Position numbers and translations under genes: made by a program | Shown here: positions 13,105 to 64,000 of the stretch, piece by piece | How positions within the stretch are numbered: the stretch's first letter is position 1 | How the letters are laid out: each line of letters starts with the position of its first letter | The notes under the pieces: model-generated | Seen by the model: only the letters and a program-made list of their open reading frames with translations | Told to the model about the DNA's origin: nothing | Database searches by the model: none | Source of the DNA: Callorhinchus milii | Taxonomy: Eukaryota | Direction of reading: 5' to 3' | Assembly (NCBI RefSeq): GCF_018977255.1 | Contig: NW_024704743.1 | Span: 1,674,001-1,738,000 of the forward strand | DNA: 64,000 nt

Positions 13105-13466
13105 GGAGTCCTGTAGCTCAGTGGTTAGAGCACTCGCCTCGCGAGTGAGAGGACCCGGGTTCGATTCCTGGGTGGGGTGAAACCTTGGGCAAGTTTCCTT
13201 ACTCCACACGCACACACGCACACGCCTCTGTTTACCGGCAGTAAATAAGAACCCAGTTGTTCATTGTTTGGGGGGGAAATCGCTTCTCAAAAAAAAAAAT
13301 AATAATTTGGTCACTCAATCCACGACTGTTTGTGGGCAATTGGCTGTTACATTTCGCCCACAAAATATATACAGTCAATTCACCTTTACAGTATATTCCG
13401 TGAAGCGCTTTGAGACATCTTAAAGACGTGATTAAGGATCTATATCAAATGTAAAGATTATTATTA
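13105..13466 (+). mobile_element. Family A SINE
   Basis: GGAGTCCTGTAGCTCAGTGGTTAGAGC (A box) ... GGTTCGATTCC (B box), (CA)n, tail with (ATT)n. Confidence 0.9.
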
Positions 13467-16023: not shown

Positions 16024-16340
16024 TATAATAATTATCCTTGCATTTGACATGACGCTTTTCACGTCTTCTCAACGTCTCAAAGCACTTCACAGGATACGCT
16101 GTAAAGTGAATTAACTGTATATTTGTGGGCGAAACGCGGCAGCCAATTGCGCACAGCAGCGTCCCCACAAACAGTCGTGGATTGCAAATGACCAATTTAT
16201 TATTGTTTTTGGTTTTGGAGGGATTATTATTAGGCTCTGTGTGGAGTAAGGAAACTTGCCCGAGGCTCACCCTCTGCCGGGAATAGAACCCAGGTCTCTC
16301 GCTTGCGAGACGAGTGCTCTAACCACTGAGCTACAGGACT
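16024..16340 (-). mobile_element. Family A SINE, short subfamily
   Basis: Lacks the (CA)n plus GCCTCTGTTTAC...GGCGGAT block; matches 47313-47634. Confidence 0.85.
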
Positions 16341-22541: not shown

Positions 22542-22870
22542 GGAGTCCTGGAGCTCAGTGGTTAGAGCCCTCGCCTCGCAAGCGAGAGGACCCGGGTTCA
22601 AATCCCGCCCAGGGAGGGTGAAACATTGGGCAAGGATCCTTACTCCACAAACACACACACACACGCGCCTGTTTACCAACAGTAAGTAGGAACTAAGTAG
22701 TTAGTCGATTGGCGGATTGCTGTTCCAGAGTTAATAATTCCTACAAAAAAAAGATAATTTAGTCACTCAATCCACGGCTGTTTGTGGGGGACGCTGCTGT
22801 GTGTAATTGGCTGCTGCGTTTCGCCCACAAAACATACAGTCAATTCACCTCACAGTACACTCTGAAGCAC
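22542..22870 (+). mobile_element. Family A SINE following the head of an older DeuSINE (22491-22541)
   Basis: Directly follows CAGCCTGGCTCAGTTGG...GAGTCAGAAGGCTGT. Confidence 0.8.
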
Positions 22871-23882: not shown

Positions 23883-24219
23883 AATAATAATAATAATAAT
23901 AATAATCCTTGCATTTGATATAGCACTTTTCACGTCGGGAGGCCGTCCCAAAGCGCTTCACAGAACACACTGTAAAGTGAATTAATTGTATATTTGTGGG
24001 CGAAACGCGGCGGCCAATTGCGCACAGCAATGTCCCACAAACAGCCGTGGATTGAAGCGAGCAATTTATTATTGCTTTTTTTTTTCTCTCTCGAGGGATT
24101 ATTATCGGGCCGTGGAGTAAGGAAACTTGCCCAGCGTTACGCCCTGACCTGCCCGGGAATCGAACCCGGGTCCTCTCGCTTGCGAGGCGAGGGCTCTAAC
24201 CCCTGAGCTACATGACTCC
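23883..24219 (-). mobile_element. Family A SINE, short type, preceded by an extra tail copy (23797-23882)
   Basis: Head, body and tandem tails with (AAT)n. Confidence 0.8.
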
Positions 24220-26560: not shown

Positions 26561-26661
26561 GGAGTCCTGTAGCTCAGGGGTTAGAGCGCTTGCCTCGCAA
26601 GCGAGAGGACCCGGGTTCGATTCCTGGGTCAGGGCGAAATGTTGGGCAAGTCTCCTCACTC

Positions 26662-33400: not shown

Positions 33401-33629
33401 ACCAGAACTGACCCCCACCCCCCAGAACTAACCCCCAACCCCCCCAGAACTAACCCCCACCCCCCCCCAGAACTAACCCCCACCCCCCAGAACTAACCCC
33501 ACCCCCCCCAGAACTGACCCCCCCCCCCCAGAACTAACCCCCACCCCCCAGAACTGACCCCCACCCCCCCAGAACTAACCCCCACCCCCCCAGAACTGAC
33601 CCCCACCCCCCCCAGAACTGACCCCCCCC
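33401..33629 (+). repeat. C-rich ~20-22 bp minisatellite CAGAACT(A/G)ACCCCCACn, ~11 units
   Basis: Units read directly. Confidence 0.9.
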
Positions 33630-33715
33630 TCACTCAGCCACTGTGCAGCGACCGCACACACAGAGCCACTCTGTCCCCCATCCAACTGGATCCCAGGCCA
33701 AGCACTCCCCAGACA

Positions 33716-34693
33716 TCCCTCCCTCCTCCGTCCTCCTCCATCCCCTCCCTCCCTCCTCTCCTCCTCCCTCCCTCCTCCTCCATCCCCTCCCTCCTCTCCT
33801 CCTCCATCCCTCCCTCCTCCCCCTCCCTCCCCTCCTCCTCCATCCCCTCCCTCCTCCCTCCTCCTCCCTCCTCTCCTCCTCCATCCCCTCCCTCCTCTCC
33901 TCCTCCATCCCCTCCCTCCTCCCTCTCCCTCCTCCTCCATCCCCTCCCTCCCTCCCTCCTCCTCCATCCCTCCATCCTCCTCTCCTCCTCCCTCCCTCCC
34001 CTCCCTCCCCTCCCTCTCCTCCTCCTCCATCCCCTCCCTCCCTCCCTCCTCCTCCATCCCCTCCCTCCCTCCTCTCCTCCTCCTCCTCTCCTCCTCCCTC
34101 CCTCCCTCCTCCCTCGCTCCCTCCATCCTCTCCTCCTCGATCCCTCCCTCCCCCCTCCCCCTCTCCCTCCCCCTCCCTCCCTCCCTCCCCTCCTCCTCCA
34201 TCCCTCCCTCCCTCCTCCTCCATCCGCTCCCTCCTCTCCTCCTCCATCCCTCCCTCCCCTCCCCCCTCTCCCTCCTCCTCCATCCCTCCCTCCCTCCTCT
34301 CCTCCTCCTCCTCCTCCTCCTCCATCCCCTCCCTCCCTCCTCCTCCATCCCCTCCCTCCCTCCTCTCCTCCTCCTCCTCCATCCCCTCCCTCCCTCCTCT
34401 CCTCCTCCTCCATCCCCTCCCTCCCCTCCTCCTCCATCCCTCCGTCCCTCCCTCCTCCTCCTCCTCCTCCATCCCCTCCCTCCCCTCCTCCTCCTCCCCT
34501 CCCTCCCCTCCTCCTCCATCCCCTCCCTCCCCTCCTCCTCCATCCCCTCCCTCCCTCCTCTTCCATCCCCTCCCTCCCTCCTCTCCTCCTCCTTCTCCCT
34601 CCCCTCCCTCCTCTCCTCCTCCTCCATCCCCTCCCTCCCTCCTCCTCCTCCTCCTCCTCCATCCCCTCCCTCCCCTCCTCCTCCCTCCCCTCC
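33716..34693 (+). repeat. ~1 kb polypyrimidine tract (CCT/CCCT/CATCCCCTCC)
   Basis: Almost exclusively C/T with a periodic A. Confidence 0.95.
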
Positions 34694-34794
34694 CAGTTCC
34701 CGGGATCAGCTGTGCGAAATATTCCAGGCAGTGAGTGGCCGGGATTCCCGGGATCAGCCCCACCTCTCCCCCCTCTCCCCCCTCTCCCCATGTA

Positions 34795-36590
34795 ACTCAC
34801 TTACACAGAGAGAGACAGACACACACACTCTCACACTGACACACACAGAGACACTCTCACACACACACACACAGACACTGACACACACACTCACACTGAC
34901 ACACACACTCACACACATAGACACACACACACTCACACTGACACACACACTCACACACACTGACACACACACTCACACACACACTCACACACACACTCAC
35001 ACTGACACACACACTCTCACACTGACACACACAGAGACACTCTCACACACACATTCACACACACGCTCACACACACACTCACACTGACACACACACTCAC
35101 ACACACACACTCACACACACACACACACACTGACACACACACTCACACACACAGACACACTCACACTGACACACACACACTCACACACACACTCACACTG
35201 ACACACACACACAGTCACACACACTCACACACACACACTGACACACTCACACACACACACACACACACAGAGACTCACACACACACTCACACAGACACTC
35301 ACACTCACACACACACTCACACACACACTCACACAGACACACACATACTCACACTCACACACACATAAACACACACACACACATAGACACTCTCTCACAC
35401 ACACAAACTCACACACACACAGACAGACACACACAGACACACAGAGACAGACACACACACAGACAGATACACACACACACAGAGAGAGACAGACACACAC
35501 AGACGGAGAGAGACGCACACACAGACAGAGAGAGACACACACACACAGACAGAGAGAGACACAGAGACAGACAGAGACACACACACACAGACAGACACAG
35601 AGACACATACACAGAAATACAGAGAGATACAGACACACAGAGAGGGACACACACACAGACGGACACACACAGGGACACAGAGAGAGACACACACACACAG
35701 AGAGACACACACAGAGCTACATACAGACAGATACGGGCACAGAGAGAGACACACACAGGGACACACAGAGAGACACACACACACACAGAGACACACACAG
35801 AGAGAGAGACACACACAGAGCTACATACAGACAGATACGGGCACAGAGAGAGAGACACACACAGAGACAGAGAGAGAGAGATATACACACACACGGACAC
35901 ACATAGAGAGGGACACAGAGACAGAGTGATATACACACACAGAGACAGAGAGAGACACACAGAGAGACAGAGAGAGACACACAGAGAGACAGAGAGAGAC
36001 ACACAGAGAGACAGAGTGAGAGATACACACAGAGACACAGAGGCTTGTGGATGCTGTTGTGGTGAAAGGACCTCAAAAATATACAGAGACAGAGATAGAC
36101 TTGAGAGACACACACACAGACACTCACACAGATAGACTTGAGAGAGAGAAACACACAGATACTCACACACAGATAGACTTAAGAGAGAGAGAGACACACA
36201 CACAGATAGACTTGAGAGATACACACACACACACACACACAGATACACAGATAGACTTGAGAGACACACACACTGATAGACTTGAGAGAGAGAGACACAC
36301 ACACTGATAGACTTGAGAGATACACACACACACAGATACACAGATAGACTTGAGAGACACACACACTGATAGACTTGAGAGAGAGAGACACACACACTGA
36401 TAGACTTGAGAGAGAGAGACACACACACACACACACACACAGATAGACTTGAGAGACACACACACAGATACACAGATAGACTTGAGAGAGAGAGAGAGAC
36501 GTATATGCAGATAGAGACTTGAGAGACAAACAGACAGATAGAGAGACTTGAGATTTGAGAGAGCGAGAGAGCGAGAGAGGCAGAGAGAGC
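34795..36590 (+). repeat. Compound (CA)/(GA) simple-repeat field ending in a GATAGACTTGAGA-(CA)n composite repeat
   Basis: Read directly; GATAGACTTGAGAGA recurs more than 10 times at 36090-36560. Confidence 0.95.
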
Positions 36591-36719
36591 AGAGCAGGTC
36601 TAGTGACATTTGTGGGCAGACGCCGCCGCTGACAACAACAACAACAACAAATTAACATTTGCACAGCGCCCTTCACGTCAGGAGGACGTCCCAAGACCGA
36701 GGGGTTGGGGGGAAGGAGG
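36560..36719 (+). promoter_or_regulatory. Putative TSS/5'UTR region of the DPP6a-type exon
   Basis: GA-rich run then short unique GC-rich sequence directly upstream of the ATG; positional inference only. Confidence 0.5.
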
Positions 36720-36779
36720 ATGAATCAGACGGCGGGGGTCTCCAACAATGTCAAGTGCTCATCTGTTAAAGGCGTCAAG
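36720..36779 (+). CDS. DPP6: Alternative first coding exon of dipeptidyl peptidase-like protein 6, DPP6a/DPP6-E type (MNQTAGVSNNVKCSSVKGVK)
   Basis: ATG at 36720, 20 open codons, phase-0 donor AAG|GTAAGT at 36780. Matches my recollection of mammalian DPP6a [20 protein letters not shown] (14/20) better than DPP10a MNQTASVSHHIKCQPSKTIK. Confidence 0.9.
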
Positions 36780-37938
36780 GTAAGTCGGGGCGAAAGGGTC
36801 AGGAAGGGGGGTTTGGCGGGGGTAAAGCTTCGGTGTCAAGCACACGCCAGAGACGCACAAGGAGTTTCCATGTTCTTAATTCCTCGTCGTCGTGGGTTAA
36901 AGCAACTCCTACGTGTTAGGTCAGGGCATTAAGGGGTACGGGGCGAAGGCGGGTAAATTTGTCTTGAGGTACAGCTCAGCCGTGATCTTATAGGATGGCT
37001 GAACCGGCTCGAGGGGCTGAATGGCCTCCTCCTATTTCTGTGTGTGTTTCTTTCTCCCCCCCATCCCCTTAACTCCCCTTCGAGCATCACCAGCTGCTTT
37101 GCAAATGTTCTCATCCCCTTGTTTTTTTTTCTTTGCCAACGAAACTATTCGCTGCGCTTTCTGGCTTCCGTACTTCAGCCCACAGAGCCACCAAACCTCT
37201 CCCCACCCACGCAGAACCACCCCCCCCCCCCCACACACACACACACACTCCATCTCTGTTTCGCCTGGGATTTAAATGGTTAACGTGCTGTGTTTCGGTG
37301 GGAGAGAGAGAGAGAGAGCACGGCTCTCTGAACTCAGCAAGGGGAATACATTAATCTTGAGCTGGGAGGGAGGGTGTAACATTTTGTCTTAAAAATGGAC
37401 CAAAAAAAAATGTCAGGGAGTATACCTCGTATTAACGTTGATTCTTCCACTTGACTGAAATATCGAGTTACATTTGCCCGTCGCTCTGCTCTGCCAAACA
37501 AAAGTTGGGGTCGTTATATTCGAGCGTTAGATCTGGGATTGAGAGAGAGAGAGAGAGATGATCATAGACACTGGAATGACTCTTATTTCTTTTCTCTGCC
37601 GGACTGGCCCCCGCTTAACCCCCTCCGCCCCACACGCTCTTCCCTGCCTCCAGGAGGCCTCCTTTCGATGCCTGTGTTCAAATGTCTTATTATTGGTTGT
37701 CGGATGTTTTAGCCGAGGCCAGTTTGAGTCTCGAGGTGCTGTCTAGACTTTTGTTGCTGAAGTTTGGGTCTGTGGGTACCTCGATTTGTGGGAGATCTCG
37801 GTTTGTGGGCCACCTTATTTTTTTTATATATATCTGGTGTATTTTGTTTGTGGTATCCCTCGATTTGTGGGGTACCACAATTTGTGGTGTCTCCAGATTT
37901 ATTCTATATCTAGATCTTCTCTGGAACCTCAACTTGTG

Positions 37939-46994: not shown

Positions 46995-47705
46995 GGAGTT
47001 CCCTGTGTCTCAGGGGTTAGAGCCCTGGCCTCGCGAGCGAGAGGTCCGGGCGACACATTGGGCGAGTTTCCTCACTCCACACACACGCCTCACTGATTAC
47101 TGATTACTACTCGCTGATTACCAGCAGTGAGTAGGAACGATTGGCGGATTGCTTTCCGGGGAGAATAATCCCTTCAAAAAAAAACTAACAATAATAATTT
47201 GGTGACTCAATCCACGACTGTTTGTGGGGACGCTGCTGCGTGCAATTGGCTGCCGCGTTTCGCCCACAAAATATAATTTACAATATATTCTGTGAAGCGC
47301 TTTGAGACATCTGGAGTCCTGTAGCTCAGTGGTTAGAGCACTCGCTTTGCGAGTGAGAGACCTGAGTTCAATCCCAGGCAGAGGGCGAAACCTTGGGCAA
47401 GTTTCCTTACTCCACACAGAGCCTAATAATAATCCCTCAAAACCAAAAACAGTAATAAATTGGTCATTTTCAATCCACGACTGTTTGTGGGACATTGCTG
47501 TGCGCCATCGGCCGACGCATTCGCCCACAAATATACAGTCAATTCACTTTACAGTGTGTTCTGTGAAGCGCTTCGGGACGACCTCTCCCGACGTGAAAAG
47601 CGCTATATCAAATGCAAGGATTATTATTATTATTATCTCGAAGACGTGATAAGCACCGTATGGAAATGCCAGGATTATTATTATTATTATTATTATTATT
47701 ATCAT
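46995..47705 (+). mobile_element. Family A SINE with a second family A SINE (47313-47634) nested in its tail
   Basis: Host tail split at GAGACATCT|...|CGAAGACGTGATAAG; ATCT on both sides of the insert. Confidence 0.85.
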
Positions 47706-48239
47706 TAAGTCTGTCTGTAACGAGTTGGATTGCAAACCCAGTTTCCGGAAGTGAAGACACAAATGTTTTACACAACGTCGTACCTCTCAGGTGCCGTTCA
47801 GGCGAACCTTCTGGCGTTTCCTGTGTCGGCTCTCTGCTGTGACCCTCTCTGTATTGTGTGCCGACTGATTGAACCCTGGTTCAGTCAGGTCAGAATCCTG
47901 CCGTGAGGGTAATTTAATAAGCGTCAATAGCTCCGAGACGCGAAGGGAAACCATTTAGTGCTTGACAGATGAGTCAGAATGTTTCTACCGCGGCTGATTT
48001 CGCACGCGAGGCTTTCTTTTTTTAAGACGCGATAAATGCAAGCTTTACGTTTGATTATAAAAAAAATCTACTTCAAGGTCCTCACGCTCATTGACAAACC
48101 CATTCATGCCCTGACACCCCCTACCTGCGGAATCCTGTGGCTCAGTGGTTACAGCCCTCGCCTCACGAGCGAGAGGACCTGGGTTTGATTCCCGGGAGGG
48201 TCAGGGCGAAAAGTTGGGGGTCTCAAAGCGTCTTCGAGA

Positions 48240-48773: not shown

Positions 48774-49615
48774 AGTTCATAGCTCGGTGGTTAGAGCGCT
48801 CGCCTCGCATGCAAGCGAGGAGGACCGGGGTTCAACTCCCGGGTGGGTCAGGTCAGGGCGAAATGTTGGGCAAGTTTCCTTACTCTACACTCACTCACTC
48901 ACACACACTCTCTCACTCACTCACTCACTCACACACACACACTCTCACTCACACACACACACACACACACTCACTCACTCACTCACTCACTCACTCACTC
49001 ACTCACTCACACACTCACTCACTCACTCACTCACACACTCACTCACTCACTCACTCACTCACACACACACACTCTCACTCACTCACTCACTCACTCACTC
49101 ACTCACTCACACACACACACACTCTCACTCACTCACTCACTCTCACTCACACACACACTCTCTCTCACTCATTCACACACACACACACACACTCTCTCAC
49201 TCACTCACACATTCTCTCACACATTCTCTCACTCACTCACACACATACTCACTCACTCACCCACACGCACACACACGCCTCTGTTTACCAGCAGTGAGCA
49301 GTAACCCGGTTGTTAGTCGATCGGCGGGTCAGTTTTTCCGGGGTGGAAGGTCGGGGAGGGGGGGGGGGGGGGTACTAGTCCCTTCCAAATAAATAATAAT
49401 AATTCGGTCGCTTCAATCCACGGCTGTTTGCGGGGACGCTGCCGTGCGCGATCGGCCGGCCGCCGGCTTTCGCCCGGGATAAACGTACGCAGCCACTCCA
49501 CTTTGCGGCGTACGGCGCGAAGCGCTGTGAGACAGACGTCTCTGATTAAGGCGCTGTATGAGATGCCAGGATTATTATTACTGTTATTGTTATTATTATT
49601 ATTATTATTATTGTT
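48774..49615 (+). mobile_element. Family A SINE with internal microsatellite expanded to ~390 bp
   Basis: Head and body flank (ACTC)n/(AC)n at 48887-49277. Confidence 0.9.
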
Positions 49616-58858: not shown

Positions 58859-59211
58859 CTCGTGTGAAATTCCACTGTGTTGATCTGTGTTTAAATGCAG
58901 TGTGTGTGTTTATTTTTATTTTGTGTGCACCCACACTGTGAAATTCCACCTCTGAGTGTGTTTAAAATAGTTGTGTGTGTGTTTTGTGTGTTTGTGTACA
59001 GTGGGGGTGTATTTAAACGCGATGGGGTTTGGGGGGTTTGCGTATACGGGCGGGTGAGTGTGTGCGTACAGTACCACACGTTCACACACACATACATACA
59101 CACACACTCACATATATACACCTCTCGCATACACACACACACGCATACACTCACCCACACATACACTCACCCACACACACATATATATATATATACACAC
59201 ACATATACACT

Positions 59212-59244
<33 letters not shown>

Positions 59245-59804
59245 CCACACACACACACACACACACGCACACACTTATTACACAATCTAAGCACTTGCAA
59301 TGCCTCCTGTGGCGACGGTGTGGATCTCAAACTAAATTAATGCAACCATAGAAACGTAACGTGTGTCTCATAGTAACGGGCAGCGGGTTATTTATTACAC
59401 GCGCACACGCACACGCACACGCACACGCGCGCACACACTGGGCTCTGGTACTCGAGGCGTCTTTCATTCCCACCTGTCAAGGCTCTCTGTTAAAACAACA
59501 ACAAAAAAAAAAGCACCTGTCTCTCGCTCACCCTCCCTGCCGGCTCTTTACACACAGACACGCCAGCAGGAGAGGGACGGAGGGTTCAAATGGGTGATAA
59601 TGTATATTACACACACGCACTGTGTATTACACACACGCACTGTGTATTACACACACACACTGTGTGTTACACACTGTATTACACACACACACTGTGTGTT
59701 ACACACTGTATTACACCACTGTATATTACATAAGCTGTATATTACGCAAACACACAGTGGATCGCACGCAGTGGATCGCGCACACACACCACTGTACATC
59801 GCGC

Positions 59805-60210
59805 GCACGGTACATCACATACACCCACGCACAGTACATTACACGCACCCACACACACGGTACATTACATGCACCCACACACACGGTACATTACATGCAC
59901 CCACACACACGGTACATTACATGCACCCACACACACGGTACATTACACGCACTCACACACACGGTACATTACACGCATCCACACACAGTACATTACACGC
60001 ATCCGCACACGATACATTACACGCACCCACGCACACGCTACATTACACGCACCCACACACACGGTACATTACACGCACACACACACACGGTACATTACAC
60101 GCACACACACACACATCCACACACACGGGACATTACACTCCACCCCACACACACACACCCACACACACGTATATTACACACACGTACATACACACACAGT
60201 ACATTACACC
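59805..60210 (+). repeat. ~26-bp minisatellite ACACACACGGTACATTACAYGCACCC
   Basis: GGTACATTAC recurs at ~26 bp spacing. Confidence 0.9.
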
Positions 60211-60762
60211 CCCCCAAACACACACACACACGCACCACCCACACCCCACACACCCCTCCCCACACCCCCACACCCTTCCCACCCCACCCCTCGCCACACA
60301 CCCCACACCCTTCCCACACCCCACACCCTTCCCACCCCACCCACACACCCCACACCCCTCCCACACCCCTCCCCACACACCCCACACCTCTCCCCACACC
60401 CCTCCCACACACCCCACACCCCTCCCCACACACCCCACACCTCTCCCACACCCCTCCCCACACACCCCCACACCCCTCCCACACACCCACACCCTCCCAC
60501 ACCCCTCCCACACACCCCACACCTCTCCCCACACCCCCCCACACCCCCCCACACCCTCACCCACACCCCACACCCCCCCACACCCCTCCCACACACCCCA
60601 CACCTCTCCCCACACCCCCCACACCCCTCCCCACACACCCCACACCCTCCCCTCACACCACCCCTCCCACAACCCCCCCAACCCTCCCCACAACCCCCCA
60701 AATCCCTCCCCAACCCCTCCCCACAACCCCCCACCCCCCCCCTCCCCCCCACACACACACAG
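60211..60762 (+). repeat. C/A-rich low-complexity tract (CCCACA/CCCTC)
   Basis: Read directly. Confidence 0.9.
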
Positions 60763-60948
60763 ATCAATGTCAACCATCCGCTCAGATTGTGTAAAAGTCC
60801 ATTTACAGAGAGGGATTATATATATTTTCTCTCCGGAGGGGAATGAGGGACATCAGTCATTCACAACTCGACACGGATTACCCCACAGTGTGGCCGCTCT
60901 CCCGGGGGGGGGGGGGGGGGGGGTCCGGGCATTGGCGGAACCTGTTTG

Positions 60949-62472
60949 GAGAGAGGGGTAGAGAGAGAGAGAGGGGGTAGAGAGAGAGGGGGTTAGAGAG
61001 AGAGAGAGGGGGTTAGAGAGAGAGAGAGGGGGTTAGAGAGAGAGAGAGGGGGTTAGAGAGAGAGAGGGGGTTAGAGAGAGAGGGGGGGTTAGAGAGAGAG
61101 AGGGGGTTAGAGAGAGAGAGGGGGTAGAGAGAGAGAGGGGGGGTAGAGAGAGAGTGGGGTAGAGAGAGAGAGAGGGGCAGAGAGAGGGGGGAGTGGAGAG
61201 AGAGAGAGGGGTAGAGAGAGAGAGTGGGGGAGAGAGAGAGGGGGCGTAGAGAGAGGGGGGGGGTAGAGAGAGAGGGGGGGGTAGAGAGAGAGAGGGGGGT
61301 AGAGAGAGAGAGGGGTAGAGAGAGGGGGGGGGTAGAGAGAGAGGGGGGGGTAGAGAGAGAGGAGGGGGTAGAGAGAGAGAGGGGTAGAGAGAGAGAGGGG
61401 CGTAGAGAGAGGGGGGGGGGTAGAGAGAGAGAGGGGTAGAGAGAGAGAGAGAGAGAGAGGGGTAGAGAGAGAGAGGGGTAGAGAGAGAGAGAGAGACACA
61501 CACAGATACAGAGAGAGACACAGAGAGACTGAGACACAGAGACTGAGATACAGAGAGACTGAGATACAGAGAGAGACAGAGACAGAGACACACAGAGAGG
61601 TGCAGAGAGACTGAGATACAGAGAGAAACACAGAGAGAGACACAGAGAGAGAGAGACACACACATATACAGAGAGACACACACACAGATACAGAGAGAGA
61701 GACAGAGATACAGAGAGAGGTGCAGAGAGACTGAGATACAGAGAGACACACAGAGAGATACAGAGAGAGAGAGAGACACACACACACACAGCGACACAAG
61801 AGATTCTGAGGGAGATACAGAGAGATAGAGAGACAGACACATACACACAGAGACAGAGACAGAGAGAGACACAGAGAGGTGCAGAGAGACTGAGATACAG
61901 AGACACACACACACACACACACACAGAGATACAGAGAAGGAGACACACACACACACACAGAGATACAGAGAGAGAGACACACACAGATACAGAGAGAGAC
62001 ACACACACACACACAGAGATACAGAGAGAGAGACACACACAGAGATACACAGAGAGAGACACACACAGATACAGAGAGAGATACACACACACACACACAC
62101 ACACACAGAGATACAGAGAGAGAGACACACACAGAGATACACAGAGAGAGACACACACAGATACAGAGAGAGATACAGACACACACACAGCGACACGAGA
62201 GTCTGAGAGAGATACAGAGAGATAGAGAGACAGACACATACACTCACAAATAGATGGACTGAGAGAAACACAGAGAGAGAGATACACACAGAGAGAGACT
62301 GAGACAGAGAGAGACTGAGACAGAGAGAGACTGAGATAGAGAGAGAGACTGAGACAGAGAGAGACTGAGATAGAGAGAGAGACTGAGACAGAGAGAGACT
62401 GAGACAGAGAGAGAAAGATACAGAGAAAGAGAGAGACAGACAACACACACACTCACACACACATATATATAT
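60949..62472 (+). repeat. Compound (GA)nGGGGT(T)A then (GA)/(CA)/GATACA field
   Basis: Read directly. Confidence 0.95.
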
Positions 62473-62667
62473 AGAGGAAGGTACCACAGGCAACTCATCC
62501 GGCAACGAGGTTTGCTCTCTCTCTCCTCCTCCCTCCCTCCCTCTCTCCCTCTCCCTCCCTCCCTCCCTCTCTCCCTCTCCCTCCCTCCCTCCCTCCCTCT
62601 CTCCCTCTCCCTCCCTCTGACACCAGTGGATGTTTGTTGGCTCTGAGGCTCAGGAACCTGCCCCAGA
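62470..62667 (+). promoter_or_regulatory. Putative TSS/5'UTR region of the DPP6K-type exon
   Basis: Unique segment, CT-rich tract and ~50 unique bp directly upstream of the ATG; positional inference only. Confidence 0.5.
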
Positions 62668-62718
62668 ATGAAGAAGCAATCCATGATCAAAACGGCCACA
62701 ATGCAAGGCAACGTGATG
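62668..62718 (+). CDS. DPP6: Alternative first coding exon of DPP6, DPP6K type (MKKQSMIKTATMQGNVM)
   Basis: ATG at 62668, 17 open codons, phase-0 donor ATG|GTAAGT at 62719. Matches my recollection of mammalian DPP6K MKEKAMIKTAKMQGNVM (13/17). Confidence 0.9.
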
Positions 62719-63077
62719 GTAAGTGAGCAAACCAGTGTTCGGCAGAGAACCAGCCCTGAACCCCAGTCAGTCAGTCAGTCACTACACTCCAGTCCAGTCC
62801 AGTCCGGGGGTTTAAAGAGTGTTTGGGCTTTAACAGGGAGTCTGGTCAACCTGGACCAGGATACCTCAACAGGATCCCTCCCTCTCTTCCCTCCCCCCCC
62901 CCCCCCCCTCCCCCTCCCCTCCTCCTTACTGCTACTACTCCCCCCACCCCCCCCCCCCCACCACACCCCCACCACCCCCAAACTTAACTAAAATAAACTT
63001 CTGCGTAGAAATCCATAAGTTTTCTGTGCATTTCAATGCTTCCAAGAGTTTCAGGTTTCCATTTGCAATGGATGTGC

Positions 63078-63981: not shown

Positions 63982-64000
63982 TGACGCTCCCCCCCCCCCC

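Follow-up and report, generated by a model that had tools for sequence, protein, structure and literature searches.

A probable DPP6 exon 1a with MNQTA and Cys13 in Callorhinchus milii

Sixty bases within a 64,000-nucleotide stretch of the Callorhinchus milii genome (the window) very probably form exon 1a of DPP6, an alternative first exon that is likely spliced in phase 0 to exon 2 and whose DPP6a subunit would plug the Kv4 channel pore, a block that oxidation of Cys13 is predicted to slow. The cytoplasmic N-terminus of DPP6 is supplied by alternative first exons joined to 25 common exons (PMC9409431, PMC3973911, PMC3968176, PMC3366920; these papers are cited here and below for the accessible portions of their text). 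Exon 1a is an ordinary orthologous exon of a known module, and its mechanism and age are already in print. Its finding is useful annotation for this genome and carries little further weight.

Exon 1a and its splice donor

Translation from the ATG at 36720 over 60 coding bases gives MNQTAGVSNNVKCSSVKGVK, a 20-residue variable N-terminus of the DPP6a kind that opens with MNQTA, carries Cys13 and ends at a phase-0 donor (Table 1). The earlier note had described a 60-bp coding exon with a GTAAGT donor, lying inside a longer spurious ORF and keeping both MNQTA and Cys13. This description proved exact for exon, donor and ORF alike, and both the motif and the cysteine can be read in the translation. 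The donor is a consensus site, and no second [AC]AGGT[AG]AGT occurs in the 64 kb, whichever strand is read. The start codon has an A at -3, and no other ATG is found between 36508 and 36719. We also considered a 70-residue protein made from the read-through ORF and rejected it, as the ORF matches no Pfam family and the homology of its relatives ends at residue 20, that is, at the donor.

Table 1. Features of the window (positions are those of the 64,000-nucleotide stretch)
Feature	Position	Strand	Remarks
DPP6 exon 1a (alternative first exon), coding bases	36720..36779	+	20 codons; by sequence, 19/20 to horn shark DPP6 X2; TBLASTN E 2.6e-15
MNQTA motif of exon 1a	36720-36734	+	
Cys13 codon of exon 1a	36756-36758	+	
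Phase-0 splice donor GTAAGT of exon 1a	36780..36785	+	after AAG
Read-through ORF over the exon 1a donor	36720..36932	+	70 codons; considered spurious past codon 20
Fragment of high-copy interspersed repeat	36632..36695	.	ends ~25 nt upstream of the exon 1a ATG
Simple repeats (C/T-rich, AC, AG), ~3 kb	33402..36594	.	directly upstream of exon 1a
Simple repeats, ~3.5 kb	59083..62617	.	directly upstream of exon 1K
DPP6 exon 1K (alternative first exon), coding bases	62668..62718	+	17 codons; 15/17 to catshark; TBLASTN E 2.6e-13
Exon 1K splice donor, GTAAGT, phase 0	62719..62724	+	
tRNA-like calls	13108-13179, 16270-16339, 22545-22616, 24145-24216, 26564-26636, 47316-47386, 48131-48203, 48774-48850		

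We compared the window by TBLASTN (PAM30) with 177 distinct variable N-termini of DPP6 and DPP10, using the reversed window as control. Exon 1a was matched with an E of 2.6e-15, followed by a place at 62668 with an E of 2.6e-13. Five further places in the window reached E values of only 0.001-0.009. The reversed window gave 28 matches at E<=0.01, the best of them at 1.2e-5. The distance between 2.6e-15 and this control value, together with the uniqueness of the donor in 64 kb, argues that exon 1a is not a chance match. A blind search with ORF residues 1-40 against 5.8 billion proteins brought up one protein among four candidates, horn shark DPP6, at an E of 1.1 that is not significant alone; the PDB held nothing at E<=10 for the 20-mer.

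Assignment to DPP6 and a second first exon

The closest relative was isoform X2 of horn shark (Heterodontus francisci) DPP6 (XP_067871122.1, P0001), which is identical to the exon 1a peptide at 19 of 20 residues. This protein has DPPIV_N and Peptidase_S9 domains and clusters with other DPP6 proteins in a quick tree (SH-aLRT 100). Its shared exon-2 segment, with the transmembrane helix, begins at residue 21, and a junction between residues 20 and 21 fits the phase-0 donor of exon 1a. Identity to the DPP6a of other cartilaginous fish was 18/20 (Hemitrygon akajei), 17/20 (Scyliorhinus canicula) and 16/20 (Amblyraja radiata), and to that of capuchin and bat 14/20. The best of 29 distinct DPP10a N-termini reached 13/20.

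The residues in which the two paralogues differ point the same way. Relatives were gathered with the first 45 residues of horn shark DPP6 X2 (best 120 of 586, then cluster members, with 15 of the 36 members of the skate and ray DPP6 cluster taken in), and patterns were counted in 57 DPP6 and 41 DPP10 a-type proteins. The set is redundant (31 and 29 distinct N-termini, respectively), and five a-type proteins whose junction pattern did not match were left out. Among the matches listed, Gly6 was present in 57/57 DPP6 and 2/41 DPP10 proteins, whereas His9 was present in none of the 57 and in 39/41, respectively. Exon 1a has Gly6 and Asn9, not the Ser/Thr6 and His9 of DPP10 exon 1a.

A scan for short exons running from an ATG to a donor brought up a second candidate on the same strand, 26 kb downstream of exon 1a. 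It is intact, donor included, and encodes 17 residues that keep the Met12, Val16 and Met17 of exon 1K. The peptide is identical at 15/17 residues to catshark DPP6 isoforms (P0281 and P0288) and at 13/17 to those of human and sturgeon; like exon 1a, it matches sharks best. For exons 1L, 1S and other first exons, TBLASTN with the 177 distinct N-termini gave no convincing match in the window. The K variant has been described for DPP6 only, as far as the accessible text of PMC3366920 and PMC3973911 goes, and an exon 1K on the same strand therefore supports the DPP6 identity of exon 1a.

A further short first exon, which ends in lysine and often has a tryptophan before it, occurs in DPP6 models of skate, catshark, sturgeon and toad (P0122, P0282, P0165, P0166, P0103). 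We guess that it is possibly DPP6D; TBLASTN did not find it in the window.

No exon 2 or other exon of the DPP6 body was found in the 64-kb window by motif scans or by TBLASTN of 177 proteins. With the gene body thus outside the window, exon 1a could in principle work in the same way and yet bear another gene symbol, as the first exon either of DPP10 or of a third paralogue akin to DPP6/10. DPP10a also starts with MNQTA, has Cys13 in 37/41 of the proteins among the matches listed and reaches up to 13/20 identity to the window, and an unnamed protein, P0342, belongs to a third clade and starts much as exon 1a does. We consider that this alternative has next to no chance of being right. Gly6 and Asn9 are of the DPP6 type, the shark DPP6a peptide stands at 19/20 against the 12-13/20 of shark and ray DPP10a where these were scored in register, and exon 1K lies downstream. 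The same points (19/20 against 13/20 at most, Gly6 with Asn9, and the neighbouring exon 1K) uphold the choice of DPP6 over DPP10 in the earlier note, and the sequence comparisons support exon 1a as a DPP6a orthologue.

The clade itself (P0342, P0368, P0369, P0372) was placed as sister to DPP10 in a quick tree, with a weak support of 89. Its member P0342, an unnamed protein, has an exon-1a-like start that reads MNQSA and no Cys13.

Proposed working and genomic surroundings

In mammals, Kv4-KChIP-DPP6 channels undergo N-type pore block by MNQTA (PMC9409431, PMC3973911, PMC3968176). The tip of DPP6a or DPP10a acts by blocking the Kv4 pore in its open state, and deletion of its five residues abolishes the block (PMC3973911). 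Oxidants slow the block via S-glutathionylation of Cys13, and the mutation C13S abolishes the redox effect and spares the block, as found in oocytes with chemical oxidants (PMC3968176). The available portions of these three papers confirm what the earlier note states for mammals, namely fast N-type inactivation by MNQTA and redox sensitivity through Cys13.

Exon 1a of the window would have a promoter of its own, active in a subset of neurons, and be spliced in phase 0 to the shared exon 2 beyond position 64000. To judge from the horn shark and other models, the product would be a DPP6a subunit, a type II membrane protein of the DPP IV family. By analogy to mammals, its MNQTA tip would act as a plug in the inner pore of Kv4, and oxidation of Cys13 is predicted to slow the block; the outcome would be a fast, oxidation-sensitive A-type current in those neurons. 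Both the fast N-type block and its redox sensitivity are carried over here from the mammalian channels. An expressed peptide that in this lineage gives no fast or redox-sensitive inactivation of Kv4 is extremely unlikely: in mammals the block is lost when the identical MNQTA motif is deleted, and the cysteine stands at position 13 as it does there, even if some fish have lost the cysteine or altered the motif and we found no recording from a cartilaginous-fish DPP6a in the literature.

The region upstream of exon 1a is rich in repeats. The interspersed repeat fragment closest to the ATG has 18 more matches in the window and very high contig depth in each of the four sequencing runs compared out of 12, and from its position the 5′ UTR must be very short or include the repeat. 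Tandem repeats cover 91% of the 3 kb before the ATG of exon 1a and 88% of that before exon 1K, compared with 5% elsewhere in the window. We found no CpG-island signal upstream of exon 1a, where the CpG observed/expected ratio of 0.86 is equalled by one third of the 400-nt stretches of the window. An exon 1a that is a true DPP6 exon by descent, but silent or nearly so here, would be expected if its promoter had been broken by repeats, namely the fragment that ends some 25 nt short of the ATG and the 3 kb of simple repeats before it. This is very unlikely, as its frame, start context and donor are all intact, 1 of its 20 residues differs from the horn shark, at the variable position 16, and exon 1K stays intact behind a similar block.

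The only two 3-kb simple-repeat blocks of the window each adjoin one first exon, an observation made post hoc and with n = 2. Such blocks may be a feature of the exon 1a and 1K promoters and, as a guess, may explain why exon 1K was missing from early assemblies. Of the eight tRNA-like calls, seven are Ala; they sit within dispersed repeats and probably represent the heads of a tRNA-derived SINE family and not tRNA genes.

Three runs that we guess to be RNA (X5, X6, X8), present as contigs only, left 36710-36909 uncovered, and none showed a loose end at 36779 among the matches listed; neither result has a bearing on splicing. One contig of run X1 spans 36666-37030 with zero substitutions and two small intronic insertions. 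X1 is possibly the source of the window itself, and its contig is therefore not independent support.

Age of the exons and comparison with known forms

The inference that the exon 1a module predates the split of cartilaginous and bony fish holds, and it is not new. A 2014 review states that exon 1a is likely older than the duplication that gave DPP6 and DPP10 (PMC3973911, accessible portion), and NCBI models already include a-type DPP6 for four species of sharks and rays, and for DPP10 they include the a-type in Chiloscyllium, Stegostoma, Hemitrygon and Rhinoraja. The further claim that such exons are easily missed by annotation was right in part. Exon 1a opens only 4 of the 29 cartilaginous-fish DPP6 proteins inspected, and exon 1K opens 2 of them, but the 4 models with exon 1a show that it does get annotated; annotation of these first exons in cartilaginous fish is patchy, not blind. 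No Callorhinchus DPP6 record was among the matches listed. Our literature search found no work on DPP6 in Callorhinchus, with the proviso that subscription papers (such as Jerng 2009 and Maffie 2009), figures and supplements may include a shark exon 1a.

Among jawless and invertebrate outgroup candidates, an MNQTA start was found in 0/149 proteins scanned of 150 listed 50%-identity representatives, which are unnamed, one per cluster, and have no bearing on lampreys. By eye, three look-alike starts (P0342, P0450 and P0407) were seen among the 44 representatives with a recognisable exon-2 motif; P0407, unnamed and at 31% identity, starts with MNQ.

For exon 1K, the minimum age in print is given by teleosts and coelacanth, and in 2012 the exon was found neither in the incomplete elephant shark genome nor in lamprey (both from the accessible text of PMC3366920). 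Outside subscription papers, figures and supplements, we found no later paper on exon 1K in cartilaginous fish or lamprey. The exon described here would fill the elephant shark gap with a chimaera sequence and moves the minimum age of DPP6K back to the jawed-vertebrate ancestor, which automatic catshark models already imply.

The cerebellum appears in the lineage of jawed vertebrates. In rat cerebellar granule cells, exons 1a and 1K jointly shape the A-type current, and the pair may have been fixed by the time of the last ancestor that all jawed vertebrates share and have tuned granule-cell Kv4 ever since, a proposal that we put forward tentatively and think somewhat less probable than its opposite. 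Should exon 1K be absent in lampreys and both exons be used in the granule cells of cartilaginous fish, tuning of Kv4 by promoter choice would be as old as the cerebellum.

DPP6a varies among fish (records P0016, P0164, P0052, P0043, P0060 and P0088-P0095). A cysteine at positions 12-15 is absent in 10/57 DPP6 a-type proteins among the matches listed, that of sturgeon included, which indicates that some fish can do without the redox role. Cysteine-less forms were seen in sturgeon, electric eel and a catfish; several teleost models, mostly named dpp6b, start with MNSSA and have no cysteine, and many other teleost DPP6a have it at position 14. With the cysteine-less and MNSSA forms, nature provides variants on which the redox and block motifs can be tested. 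The 20-residue form with Cys13 is present in cartilaginous fish and mammals and in both paralogues, a distribution in the sequences that suggests it to be ancestral and the Cys14 form of many teleosts to be derived.

The nearest known forms are the DPP6a of horn shark (X2), Hemitrygon akajei, Scyliorhinus canicula and Amblyraja radiata, all automatic gene models, which share with exon 1a the length of 20 residues, MNQTA, Cys13 and a junction after residue 20. Position 16 is Val here and Ser in the horn shark. Mammalian DPP6a (DPP6-E) has the same length, motif and cysteine, and mammalian DPP6 has several alternative first exons, 1K among them, as here (PMC3366920, PMC3968176, PMC3973911, accessible portions). 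The residues past Cys13 differ, with no Pro-Pro in exon 1a, and function has been measured for the mammalian forms only. Exon 1a of DPP10, found in sharks and rays too, has MNQTA and Cys13 but Ser/Thr6 and His9 in place of Gly6 and Asn9.

Exon 1K agrees with all 34 bony-vertebrate DPP6K rows at positions 1, 2, 9, 10 and 12-15. It differs in having Lys3-Gln4 for Glu3-Lys4 and Thr11 for Lys11. The Lys3-Gln4 start is common to catsharks and absent from all 34 of those rows. Lys2 and Lys8 are present, and Gln4 and Thr11 replace the mammalian Lys4 and Lys11; the named K isoforms of catshark and sturgeon likewise have no Lys11. In DPP6K, it is the stretch around Met12, Val16 and Met17 that is functional, whereas lysines 2, 4, 8 and 11, the feature that gave the variant its name, are dispensable (PMC3973911, accessible portion).
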